Origin: Escherichia phage vB_EcoP_PHB20
DNA: 38,552 nt
Sequence record: MN481366.1
Strand: one strand, 5' to 3'
Under the pieces are notes generated by a model. That model had not been told where the DNA came from and made no database searches. It worked only from the letters and a program-made list of their open reading frames with translations. Within the stretch, counting starts at the first letter, position 1, and each line of letters opens with the position of its first letter. The translations under genes and the position numbers were made by a program. Shown here in pieces: positions 1-38,552 of this stretch.

Positions 1-47
1 TGAAATTAGTGATACAGGTCTAAGTATCTGATTCTAGACCATTATTC

Positions 48-70
48 TAATTCGACTCACTATAGGGAGA
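48..70 (+). promoter_or_regulatory. T7 RNAP promoter, phiOR-like (right-end promoter upstream of gene 19.5)
   Basis: taattcgactcactatagggaga matches the 23-bp T7 consensus with one mismatch at -13; +1 G at 65. Confidence 0.75.
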
Positions 71-164
71 AGCCTACCTAAAGATAACTATAAGACTTAA
101 AGTGTCCTATAAGGTAGGTTGTTATTATGATTATTAATACAACCAACATAAAGGGAGGAGACTC

Positions 165-314
165 ATGTTCCGCTTATTGTTGAACCTACTGCGGCATAGA
201 GTCACATACCGCTTTCTTATGGTACTTTGTGCTGCCCTTGGTTATGCAGCTTTTAGTGGGGACCTCAGTTCGCTGGAGTCTACCGTTTGCTCTTTACTCA
301 CTTGTATTGATTAA
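165..314 (+). CDS. 19.5: gene 19.5 protein (49 aa, small hydrophobic right-end protein)
   Basis: ATG 165 preceded by aagggaggag; translation MFRLLLNLLRHRVTYRFLMVLCAALGYAAFSGDLSSLESTVCSLLTCID, near-identical to T7 gp19.5 as recalled; below the 60-aa track cutoff. Confidence 0.8.
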   Translation: MFRLLLNLLRHRVTYRFLMVLCAALGYAAFSGDLSSLESTVCSLLTCID

Positions 315-554
315 GGTCTTACTGACCGACTGATGGCTCACCGAGGGATTCAGCGGTATGATTGCATCACACCACTTCATCCCTATAGAGTCAAGTCCTA
401 AGGTATACCCATAAAGAGCCTCTAATGGTCTATCCGTAAGGTCTATACCTAAAGATAGGCCATCCTATCAGTGGAACCTAAAGAGGGTCCTAGAGAGGGC
501 CTGAGGAGTCCCTAGAGGGTCCTTTAAAATATACCATAAAAATCTGAGTGACTA

Positions 555-704
555 TCTCACAGTTTAAGAACCCAAAGTTCCCCCCATAGGGGTCCCTAAA
601 GCCCAGCCAATCACCTTGAGTCAACTTTCAGTTGACCTTGAGGGGTCCCTAAGGGTTGGGGTTGACCCTTTGGGTGTTACCTTGAGTGTCTCTTCTTGTC
701 CCCT
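555..704. repeat. Terminal repeat homolog (single copy in window; physical genome end / concatemer junction)
   Basis: tctcacag...gtgtctcttcttgtcccct aligns to the 160-bp T7 direct terminal repeat; right-end sequence lies upstream and left-end sequence downstream. Confidence 0.7.
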
Positions 705-711
705 ATCTGTT
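705..711 (+). promoter_or_regulatory. ATCTGTT element (T7 RNAP class II pause/termination signal, CJ-like) at the repeat boundary
   Basis: atctgtt directly after the terminal repeat, same relative position as the T7 concatemer-junction site. Confidence 0.5.
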
Positions 712-932
712 CACCCTCCTAAAGTCACCTCCTAAAGTCACCTCCTAAAGTCACCTCCTAAAGTCACCTCCTAAAGTCACCTCCTAAAGTCACCTCCTAA
801 AGTCACCTCCTAAAGTCACCTCCTAAAGTCACCTCCTAAAGTCACCTCCTAAAGTCACCTCCTAAAGTCACCTCCTAAAGTCACCTCCTAAAGTCACCTC
901 CTAAAGTCACCTCCTAAAGTCACCTCCTAAAG
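711..932. repeat. Tandem array of 13-bp unit TCACCTCCTAAAG (one 14-bp variant then 16 perfect copies)
   Basis: Perfect copies start at 725 and recur every 13 bp to 932; first unit tcaccctcctaaag at 711-724; no spacers. Confidence 0.95.
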
Positions 933-1172: not shown

Positions 1173-1201
1173 TTGACTTAAAGAGTACTAGGGGATATTA
1201 T
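1173..1201 (+). promoter_or_regulatory. Host sigma70 early promoter A1
   Basis: -35 ttgact at 1173-1178, -10 gatatt/tattat near 1194-1201; aligns to the T7 A1 region. Confidence 0.7.
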
Positions 1202-1300
1202 TCATCTCGTCAACGGGACAACGGCCTAAAAGCCACTCCCTGAGATACCGGGGTCAACCGGATAAGTAGACAGCCTGATAAGTCATACGAAAAACAGGCA

Positions 1301-1330
1301 TTGACAACACGAAGTAACATGCAGTAAGAT
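1301..1330 (+). promoter_or_regulatory. Host sigma70 early promoter A2
   Basis: -35 ttgaca 1301-1306, 18-bp spacer, -10 taagat 1325-1330. Confidence 0.75.
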
Positions 1331-1407
1331 ACACAGCGTCAACACGGTAGCACGGTGTCTTCTAGGTGACTTAAGCGCACCACGGCACACAAGGTGAAAC
1401 AAAACGG

Positions 1408-1436
1408 TTGACAACATGCAGTAAACACGGTACGAT
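1408..1436 (+). promoter_or_regulatory. Host sigma70 early promoter A3
   Basis: -35 ttgaca 1408-1413, 17-bp spacer, -10 tacgat 1431-1436. Confidence 0.75.
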
Positions 1437-1554
1437 GTACCACAAGCAGTAAGGGTGTAGGGATAGGAACCGAGAAACCTGCCCGTGACCCGCCAAGGAT
1501 AAGGCACTAGCCATGAGTCGAATTCGGTCACTCATCGCATAAAAGAATAACAGG

Positions 1555-1583
1555 TTGACAGCCTCCTTTAAAAGCTGTAAGAT
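1555..1583 (+). promoter_or_regulatory. Additional sigma70-like early promoter inside a ~150-bp segment absent from T7 at this position
   Basis: -35 ttgaca 1555-1560, exact 17-bp spacer, -10 taagat 1578-1583; flanks partly duplicate the A3 -10 region (gta[c/a]gatgtaccac). Confidence 0.55.
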
Positions 1584-1704
1584 GTACCACGAAATGACGG
1601 AACAGTGAGTCACCACACTGAAAGGTGATGCGGTCTAACGAAACCTGACCAAAGATGATCTTTAACAATCTGGTAAACGGCTCTTGAGTGTACACACGTA
1701 GCAG

Positions 1705-1740
1705 ATAACTCAAGGGTATCGCAAGGTGCCCTTTATGATA
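1705..1740 (+). promoter_or_regulatory. RNase III processing hairpin R0.3
   Basis: ataactcaagggtatcgcaaggtgccctttatgat, the T7-type actcaagg...ggcc hairpin just upstream of gene 0.3. Confidence 0.6.
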
Positions 1741-1770
1741 TCCACTAACAACACTATGAGGTAACACACA

Positions 1771-2133
1771 ATGGCTATGTCTAACATGACTTACAACAAC
1801 GTTTTCGATCACGCTTACGAAATGCTGAAAGAAAACATCCGTTATGATGACATCCGTGACGCTGATGATCTGCACGATGCAGTGCATATGGCAGCTGATA
1901 ATGCCGTTCCGCACTATTACAGCGACATTTTCAGCGTAATGGCAAGCGAGGGCATTGACCTTGAGTTCGAAGACTCTGGTCTGATGCCGGACACCAAGGA
2001 CGTAATCCGTATCCTGCAAGCACGTATCTATGAGCAATTAACGATTGACCTTTGGGAAGACGCTGAAGATTTGCTGAACGAGTATCTTGAGGAAGTCGAA
2101 GAGTCTGAAGAGTACGAAGAGGACGAAGAGTAA
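1771..2133 (+). CDS. 0.3: Ocr, DNA-mimic anti-restriction protein (gp0.3)
   Basis: 120-aa [25 protein letters not shown]... with acidic C-terminus; near-identical to T7 Ocr as recalled; first gene after the A promoters. Confidence 0.95.
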
Positions 2134-2288
2134 TGACTACTAACAACGTGCAATATGGTCTGACCGCTCAAACTGTACTGTTCTATAGCGACATGGTGCG
2201 CTGTGGCTTTAACTGGGCGCTCGCAATGGAACACCTTAAGGAACTGTACGAAAACAACAAGGCAATAGCCTTGGAGTCTGCTGAGTGA
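2133..2288 (+). CDS. 0.4: gp0.4 (51 aa; FtsZ inhibitor in T7)
   Basis: ATG overlaps the 0.3 stop (taATGa); [51 protein letters not shown]; below track cutoff. Confidence 0.8.
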   Translation: MTTNNVQYGLTAQTVLFYSDMVRCGFNWALAMEHLKELYENNKAIALESAE

Positions 2289-2321
2289 TAAACTCAAGGT
2301 CGCTCCTAGCGAGTGGCCTTC
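2289..2321 (+). promoter_or_regulatory. RNase III processing hairpin R0.5
   Basis: taaactcaaggtcgctcctagcgagtggcctt imperfect hairpin. Confidence 0.55.
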
Positions 2322-2483
2322 ATGATTATCACTTTACTTACGGGAGTAATGCATATGTTCACTATCGGTCTACTAACCGCTCTGGGTCTAGCTGTAGGAG
2401 CATCCTTTGGGAAGTCTTTGGGCGTAGCTGTAGGCGCTTACTTGGTCGCTTGTATCATTACGGGAGCACTGCGCAAATGCTGA
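2322..2483 (+). CDS. 0.5: gp0.5-like small membrane protein (53 aa)
   Basis: ATG 2322; hydrophobic MIITLLTGVMHMFTIGLLTALGLAVGASFGKSLGVAVGAYLVACIITGALRKC; position matches T7 0.5. Confidence 0.6.
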   Translation: MIITLLTGVMHMFTIGLLTALGLAVGASFGKSLGVAVGAYLVACIITGALRKC

Positions 2484-2554
2484 AACACTACGTTATGCCT
2501 ATCCACACCAAGAACGGTGCTACAGTTTGCACACCTGATGGCTTCGCAATGTAA
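2477..2554 (+). CDS. 0.6: gene 0.6-like short ORF (25 aa) ending at an in-frame TAA, followed by a 19-codon coding-like continuation to 2614
   Basis: MLKHYVMPIHTKNGATVCTPDGFAM then TAA, then in-frame QRIERLKRELRTNRKLNNI and a second stop. Confidence 0.4.
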   Translation: MLKHYVMPIHTKNGATVCTPDGFAM

Positions 2555-2641
2555 CAACGAATCGAACGCCTTAAGCGTGAACTGCGCACCAATCGCAAGC
2601 TCAACAATATCTAATCACATTAACACTGGAGAATGCACAAA

Positions 2642-3721
2642 GTGAACGCTATCGACATCATGAGCGCTATCGACGCAATAAAAGCACTGCCAATCTGTGA
2701 ACTTGAGAAGCATCAAGGTATGCTCATTGATTTTCTGGTTGAGATGGTCAACAGCGAAACGTGTGACGGTGAGATCACCAAGCTGGACAAGCCGCTTGAA
2801 TTCCAAGACTGGTGGACTACCTTAAAGTGCTTGACTGCGGACGCTGGATTTACGATGCTTGGTAATGGGCACTTCTCCGCTGCATATAGCCACCTACTGC
2901 TGCCTAACAGAGTGATTAAGGTGGGCTTTAAGAAAGAGGACTCAGGCGCTGCGTATACCGCATTCTGCCGCATGTATCAGGGTCGTGCTGGTATCCCTAA
3001 CGTCTACGATGTACAGCGTCACGCTGGATGCTATACGGTGGTATTGGATGCACTGAATGATTGCGAGCGTTTCGACAACGATGAGTGTTATAAATACGCT
3101 GAGATTGCAAGCGACATCATTGACTACAAATCCAATGAGCACGATATGTTAACTGGGTGGGATGGCGAGTTCGTCGAGACTTGCAAGCTAATCCGCAAGT
3201 TCTTTGAGGGCATCGCTTCGTTCGACATGCACAGCGGGAACATTATGTTCAGTGACGATGGTACGCCTTTCATTACCGACCCTGTGTCATTCTCACAGAA
3301 GAAAGACGGTGACGCATTCAGCATTGACCCTGAGGAACTCATCAAGGAAGTCGAGGAGGTCGCACACCAGAGAGCAATCGACCGCGATAAGGAACGTAAA
3401 GCACGTCATGTGGGTCGATTGGAGGCACGTAAAGTAAAGCGCCGTAACCGTAAGGCGCGTAAAGCACACCAAGAGAAGCACAAGCGAATGGTTGCTGCGT
3501 GGCGTATGGCTGAGCGCCAAGAACGACGTAACCATGAGGTAGCTGTAGACGTACTGGGAAGAACCAATAACGCTATGCTCTGGGTTAACATGTTCGCTGG
3601 GGACTTTAAGGCTCTTGAGGAACGAATTGCGGCGCACTGGTTTCAAGCTGACCGAATGGCTATCGCTAACGGTCTTCCGCTCAACATCGACAAGCAACTT
3701 GACGCAATGCTAATGGGCTGA
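2642..3721 (+). CDS. 0.7: gp0.7 serine/threonine protein kinase, host shut-off
   Basis: Track ORF 2633..3721; GTG at 2642 gives 359 aa as in T7 and better SD spacing (ggag 11 nt upstream); high identity to T7 gp0.7 as recalled. Confidence 0.9.
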
Positions 3722-3770
3722 TAGTCTTATCTTACAGGTCATCTGACTGGGGGTGGCCTGAATAGATACG
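3722..3770 (+). promoter_or_regulatory. RNase III processing site R1 upstream of gene 1
   Basis: tagtcttatcttacaggtcatctgactgggggtggcctgaatag hairpin, as before T7 gene 1. Confidence 0.5.
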
Positions 3771-3795
3771 ATTTACTAACTGGAAGAGGCACTAA

Positions 3796-6447
3796 ATGAA
3801 CACAATTAACATCGCTAAGAACGACTTCTCTGACATCGAACTGGCTGCTATCCCGTTCAACACTCTGGCTGACCATTACGGTGAGCGTTTGGCTCGCGAA
3901 CAGTTGGCCCTTGAGCATGAGTCTTACGAGATGGGTGAAGCACGCTTCTGCAAGATGTTTGAGCGTCAACTTAAAGCTGGTGAGGTTGCGGATAACGCTG
4001 CCGCTAAGCCTCTCATTACTACCCTGCTCCCTAAGATGATTGCGCGCATCAACGACTGGTTTGAGGAAGTGAAAGCTAAGCGCGGCAAGCGCCCGACAGC
4101 CTTCCAGTTCCTGCAAGAAATCAAGCCGGAAGCTGTAGCGTACATCACCATTAAGACCACTCTGGCTTGCCTAACTAGCGCAGACAATACAACCGTTCAG
4201 GCTGTAGCAAGCGCAATCGGTCGGGCCATTGAGGATGAGTCGCGCTTCGGTCGCATCCGTGACCTTGAAGCTAAGCACTTCAAGAAAAACGTTGAGGAAC
4301 AACTAAACAAGCGCGTAGGGCACGTCTACAAGAAAGCATTCATGCAGGTTGTCGAAGCTGACATGCTCTCTAAGGGTCTGATGGGTGGCGAGGCGTGGTC
4401 TTCGTGGCATAAGGAAGACTCAATTCACGTTGGGGTGCGCTGCATTGAGATGCTCATTGAGTCAACCGGAATGGTTAGCTTACATCGTCAAAACGCTGGC
4501 GTAGTGGGGCAAGACTCTGAGACTATCGAACTCGCGCCGGAATACGCTGAGGCTATCGCTACTCGCGCTGGGGCACTAGCGGGCATTTCCCCAATGTTCC
4601 AGCCTTGCGTAGTCCCTCCTAAGCCTTGGACTGGCATTACTGGTGGTGGCTATTGGGCTAACGGTCGCCGTCCTCTGGCGCTGGTACGCACTCATTTTAA
4701 GAAAGCACTGATGCGCTACGAAGATGTTTACATGCCTGAGGTGTACAAGGCGATTAACATTGCGCAAAACACCGCATGGAAAATCAACAAGAAAGTCCTA
4801 GCGGTCGCCAACGTAATCACCAAGTGGAAGCACTGCCCTGTAGAGGACATCCCAGCGATTGAGCGTGAAGAACTCCCGATGAAACCGGAAGACATCGACA
4901 CGAATCCTGAGGCACTCACCGCGTGGAAACGTGCTGCTGCCGCTGTGTACCGTAAGGACAAGGCTCGCAAGTCTCGCCGTATCAGCCTTGAGTTCATGCT
5001 TGAGCAAGCCAACAAGTTCGCTAACCATGAGGCCATCTGGTTCCCTTACAACATGGACTGGCGCGGTCGTGTTTACGCGGTGTCAATGTTCAACCCGCAA
5101 GGTAACGACATGACCAAGGGACTGCTGACGCTGGCTAAAGGTAAACCAATCGGTAAAGAGGGTTACTACTGGCTGAAAATCCACGGTGCAAACTGTGCGG
5201 GTGTCGATAAGGTTCCGTTCCCGGAGCGCATCAAGTTCATTGAGGACAACCACGAGAACATCATGGCTTGCGCTAAGTCTCCACTGGAGAACACTTGGTG
5301 GGCTGAGCAGGATTCACCATTCTGCTTCCTCGCGTTCTGCTTTGAGTACGCTGGGGTACAGCACCACGGCCTGAGCTACAACTGCTCGCTGCCTCTGGCG
5401 TTCGATGGGTCTTGCTCTGGTATTCAACACTTCTCCGCGATGCTCCGCGATGAGGTGGGTGGTCTTGCTGTTAACCTACTGCCTAGTGAAACCGTTCAGG
5501 ACATCTACGGGATTGTTGCCAAGAAAGTCAACGTGATTCTGCAAGAAGACGTAATCAACGGGACCGACAACGAAGTAGTTACCGTGACTGATGAGAACAC
5601 TGGCGAAATCTCTGAGAAAGTTAAGCTGGGTACTAAGGCACTGGCTGGTCAATGGCTGGCTTACGGTGTAACTCGTAGCGTGACTAAGCGTTCAGTCATG
5701 ACGCTGGCTTACGGGTCCAAAGAGTTCGGCTTCCGTCAACAAGTGCTGGAAGATACCATTCAGCCAGCTATCGATTCCGGCAAGGGTCTGATGTTTACTC
5801 AGCCGAATCAGGCTGCTGGGTACATGGCTAAGCTGATTTGGGAAGCTGTAAGTGTGACTGTGGTGGCTGCGGTTGAAGCGATGAACTGGCTTAAGTCTGC
5901 TGCTAAACTTCTGGCTGCTGAGGTCAAAGATAAGAAGACTGGAGAGATTCTTCGCAAGCGTTGCGCTGTGCATTGGGTGACTCCTGATGGCTTCCCTGTG
6001 TGGCAGGAATACAAGAAGCCCATCCAGACTCGCTTGAACCTGATTTTCCTCGGTCAGTTCCGTCTACAGCCTACCATTAACACAAACAAGGATAGTGAGA
6101 TTGACACACACAAACAGGAGTCCGGTATCGCTCCTAACTTTGTGCATAGCCAAGATGGTAGCCACCTGCGTAAGACTGTAGCGTGGGCGCATGAGAAGTA
6201 CGGAATCGAATCGTTTGCACTGATTCACGACTCCTTCGGGACCATTCCGGCTGACGCTGCCAACCTGTTCAAAGCTGTACGTGAAACTATGGTTGACACC
6301 TATGAGTCTTGCGATGTACTGGCTGACTTCTACGACCAGTTCGCTGACCAGTTGCACGAGTCTCAATTGGACAAAATGCCAGCACTTCCGGCTAAAGGTA
6401 ACTTGAATCTCCAAGACATCCTTAAGTCAGACTTCGCGTTTGCGTAA
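3796..6447 (+). CDS. 1: T7-type single-subunit DNA-dependent RNA polymerase (gp1)
   Basis: 883-aa ORF MNTINIAKNDFSDIELAAIPFNTLADHYGERLAREQ...; same length as and near-identical to T7 RNAP as recalled; consistent with T7-specificity promoters throughout. Confidence 0.98.
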   Translation: MNTINIAKNDFSDIELAAIPFNTLADHYGERLAREQLALEHESYEMGEARFCKMFERQLKAGEVADNAAAKPLITTLLPKMIARINDWFEEVKAKRGKRPTAFQFLQEIKPEAVAYITIKTTLACLTSADNTTVQAVASAIGRAIEDESRFGRIRDLEAKHFKKNVEEQLNKRVGHVYKKAFMQVVEADMLSKGLMGGEAWSSWHKEDSIHVGVRCIEMLIESTGMVSLHRQNAGVVGQDSETIELAPEYAEAIATRAGALAGISPMFQPCVVPPKPWTGITGGGYWANGRRPLALVRTHFKKALMRYEDVYMPEVYKAINIAQNTAWKINKKVLAVANVITKWKHCPVEDIPAIEREELPMKPEDIDTNPEALTAWKRAAAAVYRKDKARKSRRISLEFMLEQANKFANHEAIWFPYNMDWRGRVYAVSMFNPQGNDMTKGLLTLAKGKPIGKEGYYWLKIHGANCAGVDKVPFPERIKFIEDNHENIMACAKSPLENTWWAEQDSPFCFLAFCFEYAGVQHHGLSYNCSLPLAFDGSCSGIQHFSAMLRDEVGGLAVNLLPSETVQDIYGIVAKKVNVILQEDVINGTDNEVVTVTDENTGEISEKVKLGTKALAGQWLAYGVTRSVTKRSVMTLAYGSKEFGFRQQVLEDTIQPAIDSGKGLMFTQPNQAAGYMAKLIWEAVSVTVVAAVEAMNWLKSAAKLLAAEVKDKKTGEILRKRCAVHWVTPDGFPVWQEYKKPIQTRLNLIFLGQFRLQPTINTNKDSEIDTHKQESGIAPNFVHSQDGSHLRKTVAWAHEKYGIESFALIHDSFGTIPADAANLFKAVRETMVDTYESCDVLADFYDQFADQLHESQLDKMPALPAKGNLNLQDILKSDFAFA

Positions 6448-6704: not shown

Positions 6705-6833
6705 ATGCGTAACTTCGAAAAGATGACCAAACGTTCTAACCGTAACGCTCATGACTTCGAGGCAACTAAGGGTCGCAAGTTTAATAAACCATTACGAACC
6801 CGTGCACATAAACGCTGCTGGGAGGGTCAATAA
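6705..6833 (+). CDS. 1.1: gp1.1 (42 aa, basic)
   Basis: ATG 6705 after gagagg SD; MRNFEKMTKRSNRNAHDFEATKGRKFNKPLRTRAHKRCWEGQ. Confidence 0.8.
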   Translation: MRNFEKMTKRSNRNAHDFEATKGRKFNKPLRTRAHKRCWEGQ

Positions 6834-6834
6834 G

Positions 6835-7086
6835 ATGGGACGTTTATATAGTGGGAACTTGAATGACTTCAAGGCTGTTTGCAACAGGCTCTACCAGTTA
6901 GACTTTGCTGTTATAGTTGTTGAGCAGGAAGGTTCACCAAACATAAAGGCGACCATGTACCTTCGGATTGAAGACCGTACTGGTCGCATAGTTGTTCAGG
7001 AGGAGATTCACCACTGCGACGAAGACGTTCTGTACAATATGGGAACCGCTTGGCTGAACCGTATGTACGACCAGTTGAAGCACTAG
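6835..7086 (+). CDS. 1.2: gp1.2, inhibitor of host dGTP triphosphohydrolase
   Basis: Internal ATG of track ORF 6751..7086 with gggagggtcaataag upstream; MGRLYSGNL... 83 aa. Confidence 0.85.
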   Translation: MGRLYSGNLNDFKAVCNRLYQLDFAVIVVEQEGSPNIKATMYLRIEDRTGRIVVQEEIHHCDEDVLYNMGTAWLNRMYDQLKH

Positions 7087-33272: not shown

Positions 33273-35237
33273 ATGGCTAACGTAATTAAAACCGTTTTGA
33301 CTTACCAGTTAGATGGCTCCACTCGTGATTTTAATATCCCGTTTGAGTATCTAGCCCGTAAGTTCGTAGTGGTAACTCTTATTGGTGTAGACCGTAAGGT
33401 CCTTACGCTTAATACAGACTATCGCTTTGCTACACGTACTACCATCTCACTGACTAAGGCTTGGGGTCCATCCGATGGCTACACGACCATTGTGTTACGC
33501 CGAGTAACCTCCACGACCGACCGCTTGGTTGACTTTACGGACGGCTCAATCCTCCGTGCGTATGACCTTAACGTTGCTCAGATTCAAACGATGCACGTAG
33601 CGGAGGAGGCGCGCGACCTGACTGCTGATACAATCGGTGTCAATAATGACGGTCACTTGGATGCCCGTGGTCGTAAGATTGTTAACTTGGCGTATGCCAC
33701 AGGTGACTATGATGCCGTCCCTTTAAAGCAGGTTAAAGAGCGTGAAACCTCTGCGTGGAATGCCGCAACAAAAGCTAACGAACACGCTGACCGTTCTAAT
33801 AGGGAAGCAAACCGTTCCCGTGATGAGGCCAATCGCGCTCAACGTGAAGCTGACCGCTCAACGCAACAGGCAGATGTCTCTAAGCAACAGGCAGTTGAGT
33901 CCAAGAAGCAAGCTGACCGCTCAGACGCTGAGGCTGACAGAGCTAAAGGTTATGTTGATAGCATGATCGCAAGTGTCGCTGAGGCCGAGAAGCAAGCTGA
34001 CCGTGCCGACTCTGAGGCAAATCGTGCCCGTGATGAGGCCGATCGTGCTGCCGGAGAAGTGACTAAAGCTGCTGCTGAGGTTGCCAAGGCTGCTGCACAT
34101 GTTGAGACCGCTAAGGGACATGCTGATAGGGCTAACACTGAGGCAAACCGCTCCAAAGGTGAGGCTGACCGTGCTAAGTCTGAGGCAGACAAGCTGGGGA
34201 ATATGAACAGCTTAGCTGGGGCTATTGACAGGGTTGAGGATCTTGATGTTTACTTCAAGCGCAAGGTGTCAGGTAAGGACTTTACGTTGCGGAATGATGC
34301 AAAGGGCGCTGATACTAAACCAGTTGAATTAGTATGGACCCAGTGGCGTGGAGAGGGAAGCAAGGAGACCGTATGGGAACAGTGGATTCAGGCTGGTCCA
34401 AAACGCATGGACTACTATACGTTCATCAATACAGACCCTGCCACATGGCCTGACGGACGATCTAATAGTAAAGGAAAACACACATTTTTTGGAGATGTTT
34501 TATTGGCTGGTGGGAACGTGGAAATGCACGGCAACCTTAAGGTTAATGCAGTCGAGTCTAAAAATACCGTTTCCCTTACAAATGAGGGTGCCAGCTTTAG
34601 GGCAAAAACACAAGGCGGCGGATGGAGCCAGTGGACAGGAAGTCTATCTCCAGACGTGCAGCACGATATTGCAGGGCAGGGGGATATAAACTATCTCCTT
34701 GAGCGAGCGACGATTTGGGGTAAAGAGCACCTGTATGCTAAGTGCTTATACAACAATGGAACAGGCGTTAACTTCTTTATCAGACATTATCTCCGTGGGA
34801 CTCACTTCGACTACAGGAGCGATGGTACTCTTCTCAGCTCGACTGGTTGGTATATTCCACCAGATGGCAACCTGTACATCAAAAAGTACAACGAGTATAT
34901 TGATGCGTGGGTCAACAAACGCCTTGATGAACACGCCTATAACAAAAGTACCGCCGATGGTCTCTATATCCGCAAGAATGCTGGGTGGAGTGAAGTGTGG
35001 AAAGGAAGAGTTGGTGGTGGTGTATCCGTATCTCTATCTCAAGATGTTCGTTGGAGAACCATCTGGATTCAGACCAACGATCACTGGAACCCGATAGAGA
35101 TTGGGGACGATGGTGCCTACTTTCTTTCCTCTATGGGTGGGTGGATTACATTCACTATCTCCAACGGCGGGAGAACCTTCAAGAATGACAGAGATGAGAA
35201 ATCTGTACCAACTAGCATTCTGGTGCGTAACAACTAA
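33273..35237 (+). CDS. 17: Tail fiber protein gp17, long mosaic form (654 aa)
   Basis: N-terminal ~150 aa MANVIKTVLTYQLDGSTRDFNIPFEYLARKFVVVTLIGVDRK... is T7-like; then a repetitive EANRxRDEADRA coiled-coil; C-terminal ~300 aa differs from T7 except the last ~60 aa. Confidence 0.95.
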   Translation: MANVIKTVLTYQLDGSTRDFNIPFEYLARKFVVVTLIGVDRKVLTLNTDYRFATRTTISLTKAWGPSDGYTTIVLRRVTSTTDRLVDFTDGSILRAYDLNVAQIQTMHVAEEARDLTADTIGVNNDGHLDARGRKIVNLAYATGDYDAVPLKQVKERETSAWNAATKANEHADRSNREANRSRDEANRAQREADRSTQQADVSKQQAVESKKQADRSDAEADRAKGYVDSMIASVAEAEKQADRADSEANRARDEADRAAGEVTKAAAEVAKAAAHVETAKGHADRANTEANRSKGEADRAKSEADKLGNMNSLAGAIDRVEDLDVYFKRKVSGKDFTLRNDAKGADTKPVELVWTQWRGEGSKETVWEQWIQAGPKRMDYYTFINTDPATWPDGRSNSKGKHTFFGDVLLAGGNVEMHGNLKVNAVESKNTVSLTNEGASFRAKTQGGGWSQWTGSLSPDVQHDIAGQGDINYLLERATIWGKEHLYAKCLYNNGTGVNFFIRHYLRGTHFDYRSDGTLLSSTGWYIPPDGNLYIKKYNEYIDAWVNKRLDEHAYNKSTADGLYIRKNAGWSEVWKGRVGGGVSVSLSQDVRWRTIWIQTNDHWNPIEIGDDGAYFLSSMGGWITFTISNGGRTFKNDRDEKSVPTSILVRNN

Positions 35238-35284
35238 GGGATGACCAATAGTCCACGGATGGACTCTTTGAGGGAGGACGCTAC

Positions 35285-35488
35285 ATGTTGTCTTTAGATT
35301 TTAATAATGAGTTAGTCAAGGCCGCACCTATTGTTGGCACTGGTGTGGCTGATGGCGCTGCGAGGCTTTTCTTCGGTCTGAGTCTTAATGAGTGGTTCTA
35401 CGTTGCCGCTATGGCCTACACAGTGGTTCAGATTGGTGCCAAGGTAGTCGATAAGATGATTGACTGGAAGAAAGCCAATAAGGAGTAA
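35285..35488 (+). CDS. 17.5: Holin (gp17.5)
   Basis: 67 aa with one hydrophobic segment and charged C-terminus; near-identical to T7 gp17.5 as recalled. Confidence 0.9.
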   Translation: MLSLDFNNELVKAAPIVGTGVADGAARLFFGLSLNEWFYVAAMAYTVVQIGAKVVDKMIDWKKANKE

Positions 35489-35491
35489 TAT

Positions 35492-35761
35492 ATGGAAAAA
35501 GATAAGAGCCTCATTACGTTCTTAGAGATGTTGGACACTGCGATGGCTCAGCGTATGCTTGCGGACCTTTCGGACCCTGAGCGGCGCTCTCCACAACTCT
35601 ATAACGCCATTAACAAACTGTTAGACCGTCACAAGTTCCAGATTGGTAAGTTGCAGCCGGATGTTCACATCTTGGGTGGCCTTGCTGGTGCTCTTGAAGA
35701 GTACAAAGAGAAAGTCGGTGAGAACGGTCTTACGGATGACGATATTTATACTTTACAGTGA
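35492..35761 (+). CDS. 18: Terminase small subunit (gp18)
   Basis: 89 aa MEKDKSLITFLEMLDTAMAQRMLADLSDPERRSPQLYNAINKLLDRHKFQIGKL...; T7 gp18-like. Confidence 0.9.
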   Translation: MEKDKSLITFLEMLDTAMAQRMLADLSDPERRSPQLYNAINKLLDRHKFQIGKLQPDVHILGGLAGALEEYKEKVGENGLTDDDIYTLQ

Positions 35762-35796
35762 TATACTCAAGGTCTCCTACGGGTGGCCTTTATGGA
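35762..35796 (+). promoter_or_regulatory. RNase III processing hairpin R18.5
   Basis: tatactcaaggtctcctacgggtggcctttatgg. Confidence 0.5.
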
Positions 35797-35853
35797 TGTC
35801 ATTGTCTACACGAGATGCTCCTACGTGAAATCTGAAAGTTAACGGGAGGCATT

Positions 35854-36297
35854 ATGCTGGAATTTTTACGTAAGCTGGTCCCTTGGGTTCTCGCTGGGAT
35901 GCTGCTCGGATGTGGATGGCAACTTGGGGCTGACTCAATGGACGCCAAGTGGAAACAGGAGGTACAGAATGAGTACGTTAAGAGAGTTGAGGCTACGGCG
36001 AGCACTCAAAGAGCAGTCAGTGAAATATCGGCTAAGTATCAAGAAGACCTTGCCGCGTTGGAAGGGAGCACTGATAGGATTATTTCTGATTTGCGTAGCG
36101 ACAATAAGCGGTTGCGCGTCAGAATCAAGACTACCGGAACCTCCGATGGTAAGTGTGGATTCGAGCCTGATGGTCGAGCCGAACTTGACGACCGAGATGC
36201 TAAACGTATTCTCGCAGTGACCCAGAAGGGTGACGCATGGATTCGTGCGTTACAGGATACTATTCGTGAACTGCAACGTAAGCAGGAAACCAAGTAA
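35854..36297 (+). CDS. 18.5: i-spanin, Rz-like (gp18.5)
   Basis: 147 aa with N-terminal TM segment LVPWVLAGMLLGCGW and coiled-coil periplasmic part; T7 gp18.5-like. Confidence 0.9.
   Translation: MLEFLRKLVPWVLAGMLLGCGWQLGADSMDAKWKQEVQNEYVKRVEATASTQRAVSEISAKYQEDLAALEGSTDRIISDLRSDNKRLRVRIKTTGTSDGKCGFEPDGRAELDDRDAKRILAVTQKGDAWIRALQDTIRELQRKQETK
35969..36220 (+). CDS. 18.7: o-spanin, Rz1-like lipoprotein (gp18.7), embedded in the +1 frame of 18.5
   Basis: Internal ATG of track ORF 35912..36220; 83 aa with lipobox TISGC and proline-rich mature part; fully embedded in 18.5. Confidence 0.8.
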   Translation: MSTLRELRLRRALKEQSVKYRLSIKKTLPRWKGALIGLFLICVATISGCASESRLPEPPMVSVDSSLMVEPNLTTEMLNVFSQ

Positions 36298-36306
36298 GGA
36301 GGTAAT

Positions 36307-38067
36307 GTGTCTACTCAATCCAATCGTAATTTGCTCGTTGTGGCGCAACTAAAGGGCGACTTCGTGGCGTTCCTGTTCGTCTTATGGAAGGCGTTAAACC
36401 TTCCGGTGCCCACTAAGTGTCAGATTGACATGGCTAAGGTGCTGGAGAATGGAGACAACAAGAAGTTCATCCTACAGGCTTTCCGTGGTATCGGTAAGTC
36501 GTTCATCACATGTGCGTTCGTTGTGTGGTCCTTATGGAGAGACCCACAGTTGAAGATACTCATTGTATCAGCCTCTAAAGAACGTGCAGACGCTAACTCC
36601 ATCTTCATTAAGAACATCATTGACCTGCTCCCATTCCTTGCTGAGCTAAAGCCAAGACCCGGACAGCGCGACTCTGTAATCAGCTTTGATGTTGGTCCTG
36701 CCAGTCCTGACCACTCGCCTAGTGTGAAATCAGTAGGTATCACTGGTCAGTTAACTGGTAGTCGTGCTGATATTATCATTGCGGATGACGTTGAGATTCC
36801 GTCTAACAGTGCTACTATGGGTGCCCGTGAGAAGCTATGGACTCTGGTTCAGGAGTTCGCTGCGTTACTTAAGCCGCTGCCTACTTCTCGTGTTATCTAC
36901 CTTGGTACACCTCAAACTGAGATGACTCTCTATAAGGAACTGGAGGATAACCGTGGGTACACCACTATCATCTGGCCTGCTCTGTACCCAAGGACTCGTG
37001 AGGAGAATCTTTACTATGCCCAACGTCTTGCCCCAATGCTCCGTGCGGAGTACGAGGAGAATCCTGAGGCTCTGGCTGGTACTCCTACAGACCCTGTTCG
37101 ATTCGACAGAGATGACCTACGTGAGCGTGAGTTGGAATACGGTAAGGCTGGCTTTACGCTACAGTTTATGCTTAACCCGAACCTGAGTGATGCCGAGAAG
37201 TACCCTCTGAGGCTCCGTGACGCTATCGTAGCGGCCTTAGACTTAGAGAAGGCACCGATGCATTACCAGTGGCTTCCGAACCGTCAGAACATCATTGAGG
37301 ACCTTCCTAACGTGGGCCTTAAGGGTGATGACCTGCACACCTACCACGAGTGCTCGAATAACTCTGGTCAGTATCAACAGAAGATTCTGGTCATTGACCC
37401 TAGTGGTCGCGGTAAGGACGAAACAGGTTACGCGGTGCTGTACACCCTCAATGGTTACATCTACCTAATGGAAGCTGGAGGTTTCCGTGACGGTTACTCC
37501 GATAAGACCCTTGAGTTGCTCGCTAAGAAAGCTAAGCAATGGGGAGTCCAGACGGTCGTCTACGAGAGTAACTTCGGTGATGGTATGTTTGGTAAGGTAT
37601 TCAGTCCTATCCTTCTTAAACACCACAACTGTGCTATGGAAGAGATTCGTGCTCGTGGTATGAAGGAGATGCGTATTTGTGATACCCTTGAGCCAGTCAT
37701 GCAGACTCACCGCCTTGTCATTCGTGATGAGGTCATTAGGGCAGACTACCAGTCCGCTCGTGACGTAGACGGTAAGCATGACGTTAAGTATTCACTGTTC
37801 TACCAGATGACCCGCATCACTCGTGAGAAAGGTGCTCTGGCTCATGATGACCGCTTGGATGCTCTTGCGTTAGGCGTTGAGTATCTCCGTGAGTCCATGC
37901 AGTTGGATTCCGTTAAGGTCGAGGGTGAAGTGCTTGCTGACTTCCTTGAGGAGCACATGATGCGTCCTACGGTTGCCGCTACGCATATCATTGAGATGTC
38001 TGTAGGAGGAGTTGATGTGTACTCTGAGGACGATGAGGGTTACGGTACGTCTTTCATTGAGTGGTGA
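36307..38067 (+). CDS. 19: Terminase large subunit (gp19)
   Basis: 586 aa, GTG start after taaggaggtaat; Walker A-like AFRGIGKS; near-identical to T7 gp19 as recalled. Confidence 0.98.
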
Positions 38068-38104
38068 TTTATGAGGCCAAGGAAGGCCACTTTAAGGAGG
38101 TAAT

Positions 38105-38548
38105 ATGATAAACAAGAAGAAGTATGTTGTTGATAAGGAGACTGGTTGCTGGAACTTTAAGGGATGTAAGACGAAGACTGGTTATGGTCGTATCCGTGTG
38201 AATGGTGTCCATTGGATGGCCCACAGGTATTCCCTGAGTTGTCATCTAGGCAGACCGATAGCTGACGGAATGGTTGTGATGCACCTGTGTGATAACCCTT
38301 CGTGTGTTAACCCTGAGCACCTTAAGGAAGGGACCCAGAAGGAAAACATAGAGGACTGCATCTCAAAGGGTCGCGCAACTAAGGCCACAGGTAAACGTGA
38401 TGCGTCGAAGAGAGACCCTAGCGAGGAACGTAAGGCTATAGTGATTCGTAGATACCATAAAGGCTGGAACGCAACGTCCATAGCGAGATACCATAAGCTC
38501 TCTGTGGCGTGGGTCAAGAGGGTCATTGAGGAGTACCTAAGTGATTGA
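38105..38548 (+). CDS. HNH-family homing endonuclease-like protein (147 aa), not at this position in T7
   Basis: Motif ETGCWNFKG..GYGRIRVNGVHWMAHR...VVMHLCDNPSCVNPEHLKEGTQKEN typical of phage HNH endonucleases, plus C-terminal HTH-like AIVIRRYHKGWNATSIARYHKLSVAWVKRV; SD taaggaggtaatATG; rare AGA/AGG/ATA/CTA codons. Confidence 0.85.
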   Translation: MINKKKYVVDKETGCWNFKGCKTKTGYGRIRVNGVHWMAHRYSLSCHLGRPIADGMVVMHLCDNPSCVNPEHLKEGTQKENIEDCISKGRATKATGKRDASKRDPSEERKAIVIRRYHKGWNATSIARYHKLSVAWVKRVIEEYLSD

Positions 38549-38552
38549 TATT

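Follow-up and report, generated by a model that had tools for sequence, protein, structure and literature searches.

A gene 19.4-type HNH endonuclease gene, probably a free-standing homing endonuclease gene, between the terminase gene and phiOR of a T7-like Escherichia phage

The 147-aa open reading frame (ORF) downstream of gene 19 in Escherichia phage vB_EcoP_PHB20 (MN481366.1) is probably a free-standing homing endonuclease gene of the I-HmuI-like HNH class that belongs to the gene 19.4 group; we put the probability of this reading, in which cleavage and homing are predicted from sequence and modelled structure, at about 0.75. The window, meaning the whole 38,552-nt stretch of DNA that was analysed, carries the ORF on its plus strand at positions 38105–38548. 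Matches to Pfam HNH_3 and HTH_23, together with an end-to-end match to PHROG 6254, show that the ORF is a genuine gene, as opposed to a frame open by chance. It is also an ordinary, already known feature: the RefSeq record of Enterobacteria phage vB_EcoP_IME390 annotates the ORF as 'HNH endonuclease' (HOU37_gp45), and in phage 13a the gene is named 19.4. A minority of T7-like phages have a 19.4-type gene in this position, after gene 19 and before phiOR.

Phage IME390 (MH779619/NC_048082, genus Teseptimavirus) is 100% identical to the window across the query. Relative to NC_048082, however, the window is circularly permuted: record positions 34500–37698 equal window positions 35354–38552 and the last 698 nt of the record (37699–38396) equal window positions 1–698. 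The window includes the terminal repeat once (about 555–702), and the linear IME390 genome is permuted in it (window 1–868 and 38552). The window end at 38552, which lies 4 nt past the ORF stop, is an arbitrary cut. The 'genome right end' that the initial annotation had placed beside the gene turned out to be an artefact of this cut, as phiOR, gene 19.5 and the terminal repeat all follow; because the window is circularly permuted, reasoning about the end of the genome from window coordinates is unsafe. The HNH gene is flanked by gene 19 and phiOR, and ~560 nt separate it from the terminal repeat downstream. The features of the locus, read across the permutation point, are as follows.

36307–38067, plus strand: gene 19, terminase large subunit, 586 aa (ORF; 100% identical to the IME390 'terminase large subunit')
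38068–38073, plus strand: TTTATG, the final 6 nt in common with genomes that do not have the gene (alignment with T7, 64795_ec1, 13a and N30)
38074–38104, plus strand: cassette leader including the ribosome-binding site TAAGGAGGT (sequence)
38105–38548, plus strand: HNH endonuclease gene of the gene 19.4 type, 147 aa (ORF listing, Pfam, PHROG, alignments, AlphaFold2 and Foldseek)
38219–38347, plus strand: predicted HNH_3 nuclease core, aa 39–81 (Pfam; invariant columns; best Foldseek match I-HmuI, 1u3e)
38414–38539, plus strand: predicted C-terminal helix-turn-helix DNA-binding domain, aa 104–145 (Pfam HTH_23; AlphaFold2 helices; weak Foldseek matches)
1–141, plus strand: right part of the cassette, non-T7 sequence, which continues 38549–38552 across the permutation point (alignments; T7 identity is back at 142)
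48–70, plus strand: variant phiOR-type T7 RNA polymerase promoter TAATTCGACTCACTATAGGGAGA, with one A-to-T change from the consensus
165–314, plus strand: gene 19.5 homologue, 49 aa, the first gene again common to T7 (alignment and annotation)
555–702, no strand: sequence of the terminal repeat, marking the physical ends of the genome (located by blastn with the repeats of T7, 13a and Yanou as queries)

Just to the right of the terminal repeat, the window contains a perfect tandem array of the 13-nt unit CCTCCTAAAGTCA (16.8 copies, 100% match, 715–932), at a position where T7 presumably has imperfect short repeats. The array is longer than that in the IME390 RefSeq record by 12 units (156 nt), which explains the whole difference in length between the two sequences (38552 and 38396). 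An extra terminal repeat was considered as the source of these 156 nt and rejected. The difference in copy number could reflect real variation or an effect of assembly.

The ORF opens with the first start codon that follows a stop. Directly 5′ of it lies the essential gene 19, whose stop codon occupies 38065–38067, leaving a gap of 37 nt. A 9-nt Shine-Dalgarno sequence (TAAGGAGGT, 38093–38101) is placed 3 nt 5′ of the ATG, and the initial description of a complete ORF with its own strong ribosome-binding site 37 nt downstream of gene 19 is thus confirmed. Neither a terminator nor a convincing sigma-70 promoter was found in the gap, and folding of the leader RNA gave a z-score of −0.56, indicating no significant structure and an unmasked ribosome-binding site. 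Because no terminator intervenes, the gene would be expressed late through transcripts that read through gene 19, with translation starting from its own strong ribosome-binding site.

The encoded protein passes the family test for Pfam HNH_3 at aa 39–81 (E = 9e-9; 35.2 bits, cut-off 24.8) and lies just over the cut-off for HTH_23 at aa 104–145 (E = 1e-5; 25.6 bits, cut-off 24.6); both the HNH signature and the C-terminal helix-turn-helix tail that the initial annotation had described from the sequence are therefore recovered by profile. The match to PHROG 6254 'HNH endonuclease' (3e-60) spans profile positions 2–153 of 154, and a search of NCBIfam returned just one spurious sub-threshold match. 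In alignments of 39 and 51 homologues, which include T7 gp7.7 and gp2.8, residues C15, H40, H60, C62, C67, N69, H72, L73 and N81 do not vary. Among them are the catalytic His and Asn residues, the loss of which the initial annotation had taken to be fatal to its interpretation. The HNH catalytic set and the Cys/His zinc motif are therefore intact, the roles of the single residues being putative.

The AlphaFold2 model of the protein (pLDDT 88.7) consists of a β-rich nuclease domain and a three-helix C-terminal domain connected by a disordered linker (aa 97–103). Strands 56–60 and 73–77 followed by helix 78–88 correspond to a ββα-metal fold, and the C-terminal helices 107–118, 123–130 and 134–146 are modelled at pLDDT >89. 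The HTH_23 match and these three predicted helices point to a separate, presumably sequence-specific DNA-binding module. The best match among solved structures in Foldseek was I-HmuI (PDB 1U3E; E = 9.6e-4, probability 1.00, 104 columns, 24% identity), followed by I-PpoI (E = 0.02) and SMAD MH1 domains, with weak matches to Fis-type helix-turn-helix proteins (E of 0.13 and above). A sequence search of solved structures gave no match at E up to 1, and the link to I-HmuI thus needed the predicted model. I-HmuI comes from Bacillus phage SPO1 and, like the protein studied here, places its HNH nuclease at the N terminus and a helix-turn-helix at the C terminus; this HNH homing endonuclease is intron-encoded, whereas the 19.4-type gene described here is free-standing. 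The extra Cys/His zinc motif of the HNH protein resembles the His-Cys box loop of I-PpoI, but the score for Pfam zf-His_Me_endon (25.9 bits) is under the cut-off of 27, which does not place the protein in the His-Cys box family. The domain matches and the modelled fold identify the ORF product as a predicted HNH endonuclease of the I-HmuI-like (His-Me finger) class with a helix-turn-helix tail.

We compared the locus with T7, in which gene 19 ends at 39130 and phiOR lies at 39229. The ~98 nt between them contain no gene, as the initial annotation had stated, and no HNH remnant was found in the T7 gene 19–gene 19.5 interval, where the only matches were the promoter and the gene 19.5 ribosome-binding site. 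The slots of the T7 accessory genes 2.8, 3.8, 5.3 and 7.7 were likewise correctly described as empty: none of these genes has a counterpart at its usual position in the window, and the genes flanking the slots abut with gaps of 0, 67, 19 and 14 nt, respectively. Pfam assigns T7 gp2.8, gp3.8 and gp7.7 to HNH_3 and gp5.3 to the PD-(D/E)XK nucleases. When the T7 proteins were compared with the window by tblastn, gp2.8 and gp7.7 matched solely the 38105–38548 ORF, and gp3.8 and gp5.3 gave no match. This comparison, which had been proposed at the outset, revealed homology of the nuclease domain to gp7.7 (45% identity, E = 4e-19) and to gp2.8 (39% identity, E = 1.6e-16), and the HNH protein is a paralogue of both. 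All three have a nuclease and a C-terminal helix-turn-helix-like tail and possess all of the invariant residues. They differ in location, as T7 gene 7.7 is flanked by 7.3 and 8 and gene 2.8 by 2.5 and 3, slots that are both empty in the window, and in their best PHROG, which is 59 for the T7 proteins and not 6254.

A query consisting of gene 19 and the ORF matched 632 phage records, 31 of which cover at least 80% of the query, including the HNH part. For relatives with a 93–95% identical gene 19, the match ends at query position 1774, 6 nt past the stop codon. The gene is missing from T7, 64795_ec1 and most records in which gene 19 is at least 90% identical, so that the same gene does not occupy this position throughout the group, an outcome that the initial annotation had named as counting against mobility if combined with uniform composition; a compositional difference is present as well. 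Carriers include N30, CICC 80001, HZ2R8, JB01, the Yersinia phages vB_Yep_9 and vB_YpYeO9, Cedecea phage Yanou, the BASEL phage JeanTinguely, where the gene is annotated as 'putative homing endonuclease', phage 13a and Salmonella phage Vi06. In 13a, phiOR is annotated just downstream of gene 19.4 (YP_002003987), and in Yersinia phage Berlin (genus Berlinvirus) the ~50% identical ORF42 directly follows gene 19. The 13a and Berlin proteins match PHROG 6254 at 1e-62 and 4e-62, respectively. The full-length profile match and the common slot argue for membership of the ORF in the gene 19.4 orthologue group (PHROG 6254).

The gene 19.4 of 13a has the same slot, PHROG, ribosome-binding site and left junction as the gene in the window, and the two are 92% identical over the first 291 nt. 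In 13a and Vi06, however, the alleles combine a near-identical nuclease domain with a strongly diverged C-terminal DNA-binding third, in which identity falls to 62–77% compared with 93–96% in the blocks just before it.

3305–3766 of the examined 13a locus: 13a 19.4 allele, diverged C-terminal third
3837–4289 of the examined Vi06 locus: Vi06 19.4 allele, diverged C-terminal third

This is the pattern expected if target specificity had shifted, and the two alleles may recognise a different sequence.

Two of the records examined have peculiarities of their own. Gene 19 of Vi06 (1200–3794 of the examined locus, 2595 nt) is annotated as interrupted and flagged as a pseudogene, and contains a 180-aa ORF (1951–2493) that RefSeq labels as an HNH endonuclease and that has no Pfam match; this inner ORF may be an intron-type insertion, present in addition to the downstream 19.4-type gene. 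The T7-type gene 19/19.5 flanks are matched at 98.7% identity by MT350293.1, a record named 'Enterococcus phage EFA-2' with Enterococcus faecalis as host, which suggests contamination or mislabelling because an Enterococcus host is implausible for a T7-like coliphage.

The position of the gene next to that of the terminase large subunit would also suit an accessory packaging nuclease that, like HK97 gp74, helps the terminase to cut concatemers. Terminase-adjacent HNH proteins are needed for cos cleavage in HK97-like phages, according to Kala et al. (2014) as cited in PMC10448857 and PMC8861465. A role of this kind is scarcely credible here, since T7 and most relatives with a 93–95% identical gene 19 do not have the gene and are nevertheless viable; T7-type packaging works without 19.4. 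The domain is HNH_3 of the I-HmuI type and not that of the HK97 gp74 type, which we take to be Pfam PF01844. The 19.4-type gene is also located downstream, not upstream, of the terminase genes, and its closest T7 paralogues occupy non-packaging slots. The conservation in all related phages that marks an HK97 gp74-like packaging module was not observed, and the packaging idea was discarded on the patchy distribution and the different HNH family. In favour of homing, homing endonuclease genes cluster beside terminase and other essential phage genes (PMC10448857), and in a T7-like Hafnia phage an HNH gene immediately precedes gene 19 (PMC8861465).

When the locus is aligned with T7 and 64795_ec1, a sharp left boundary falls immediately after TGATTTATG, between 38073 and 38074. 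The sequence 3′ of the HNH gene, including the phiOR with its one-base variant (TAATTCGACTCAC...), is unrelated to the T7 interval, and T7 identity is back at window position 142, at the gene 19.5 ribosome-binding site. The linked right flank thus comprises ~140 nt of non-T7 sequence, and all listed records that have this flank also carry the HNH gene (span ~1000 nt), whereas T7-type records have a span of 615 nt with the middle unaligned. From these alignments, the unit appears to be a 620-nt cassette (38074–38552 plus 1–141) that replaces ~229 nt of T7-type sequence, and not a clean insertion. Presence in some and absence from others of otherwise collinear relatives, with a defined left boundary, is what is expected of a homing gene; on the right side, the change is a linked replacement. 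The listed records include no 'empty' allele that has this right flank, so the event resembles the replacement of a segment, an outcome that could also arise from ordinary recombination between T7-like phages. Sliding identity between seven carriers and the window, over the region that starts with gene 19 and ends with the terminal repeat, showed general mosaicism and no sharp co-conversion tract or boundary. The proposal of a mobile gene that had colonised a new intergenic site therefore stands in part: absence from T7 and most close relatives and the sharp left boundary support it, while the slot is new only in relation to T7, being recurrent and already annotated, and the change is a cassette replacement.

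Five promoters in the window match the consensus perfectly; the variant phiOR (48–70) departs from them by a single A-to-T change (TAATTCGACTCACTATAGGGAGA). It is also found in 13a and N30, both of the carriers in the junction alignment, and the 13a record annotates this sequence as phiOR.

Codon usage sets the gene apart from its neighbours. The rare codons AGA (4), AGG (2), ATA (5) and CTA (2) make up 13 of its 147 codons (8.8%) compared with 1.8% in the other 38 genes, a 4.9-fold excess (binomial P = 3.5e-6) and the second highest share among the 39 genes. AGA and AGG account for 50% of its Arg codons compared with 12% elsewhere, and ATA for 56% of its Ile codons compared with 7% elsewhere; its G+C content (0.48) is not unusual. 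The atypical usage reported by the initial annotation is upheld together with its counts of AGA, ATA and CTA, but AGG occurs twice and not once. The sole other gene that is comparably rich in rare codons (9.0%; AGG 4, ATA 5, CTA 1) is the gene 1.2 homologue at 6751–7086 (Pfam T7-like_gp12, E = 9e-27). According to the BASEL paper, alleles of gp1.2 are swapped between genera and determine sensitivity to PifA (PMC8594841); in view of this exchange and its rare codons, the gene 1.2 homologue may also be a recent import.

To the history of the HNH gene, substitution rates add that it does not follow gene 19. Synonymous divergence (dS) between IME390 and Yep_9 is 0.09 for the HNH gene and 0.33 for gene 19, and between N30 and Yanou it is 0.63 and 0.32, respectively, indicating that the two genes have different histories. 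The HNH gene is intact in 11 of the 11 carriers examined, and dN/dS among six equal-length alleles (15 pairs) is 0.04–0.13, not far from the 0.02–0.06 of gene 19. Carriers hold the HNH gene under strong purifying selection.

This selection bears on two other readings of the gene. An inactive relic, or a protein that binds DNA without cleaving it, is very unlikely, given the strong purifying selection, the frame intact in every carrier examined and the presence of all family-invariant catalytic and zinc-binding residues, even though the catalysis-independent effects of related proteins show that binding alone can matter (10.1101/2025.09.07.674715). The selection is, on the other hand, stronger than a purely selfish, decaying element needs, which counts against a reading of homing alone and may indicate a benefit to the phage. 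Maintenance of the gene mainly for such a benefit and not for homing, whether through the cutting of competing T7-type phages or through DNA binding that blunts host defence, is nonetheless unlikely in our view. The low dN/dS and the intact frames would fit it, as would the reported attenuation of GAPS4 by HNH homing endonucleases, T7 gp3.8 and an HNH protein of a BASEL phage among them, which does not depend on catalysis, and the slower growth on GAPS4 hosts of a T7 mutant without three homing endonucleases (10.1101/2025.09.07.674715). However, the effect of GAPS4 in real infection is mild according to the same authors (10.1101/2025.09.07.674715), most close relatives manage without the gene, and no sequence feature ties the HNH protein to any defence system. 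A benefit to the phage overlaps with homing and is compatible with it. Only tentatively, we suggest that purifying selection may keep the 19.4-type HNH protein as a phage helper, cutting co-infecting T7-type relatives or masking DNA breaks from defences such as GAPS4, and that the protein, encoded between gene 19 and phiOR, may also move the linked right-end allele of the promoter and packaging region between phages.

If the gene is a homing endonuclease gene, as we favour, its action would begin when a carrier co-infects a cell with a relative that has a T7-type interval. The C-terminal helix-turn-helix would bind a specific site in or beside that interval, and the HNH domain would nick or cut the DNA, with His60 as the putative general base, the metal bound by Asn81 and/or His72, and the Cys/His residues forming a zinc site. 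Phage recombination would then repair the break from the carrier genome, copying in the gene and the linked flank with its variant phiOR. Carrier genomes would themselves be immune, since their T7-type interval is replaced.

As a discovery, the gene carries little weight, because it was already annotated and named and homing genes beside the terminase gene are a documented pattern. A search of the literature on gene 19.4, gp19.4 and IME390 found no functional study and no cleavage or homing experiment for any 19.4-type gene. No 19.4-type enzyme appears to have been characterised in the literature. Because crosses and engineering are easy in T7-like phages, the 19.4 system would be suited to a clean test of homing, of marker exclusion around gene 19 and phiOR, and of the part in counter-defence recently proposed for phage HNH proteins. 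In annotation and phylogeny, the interval between gene 19 and gene 19.5 is best handled as a mobile, recombining cassette.
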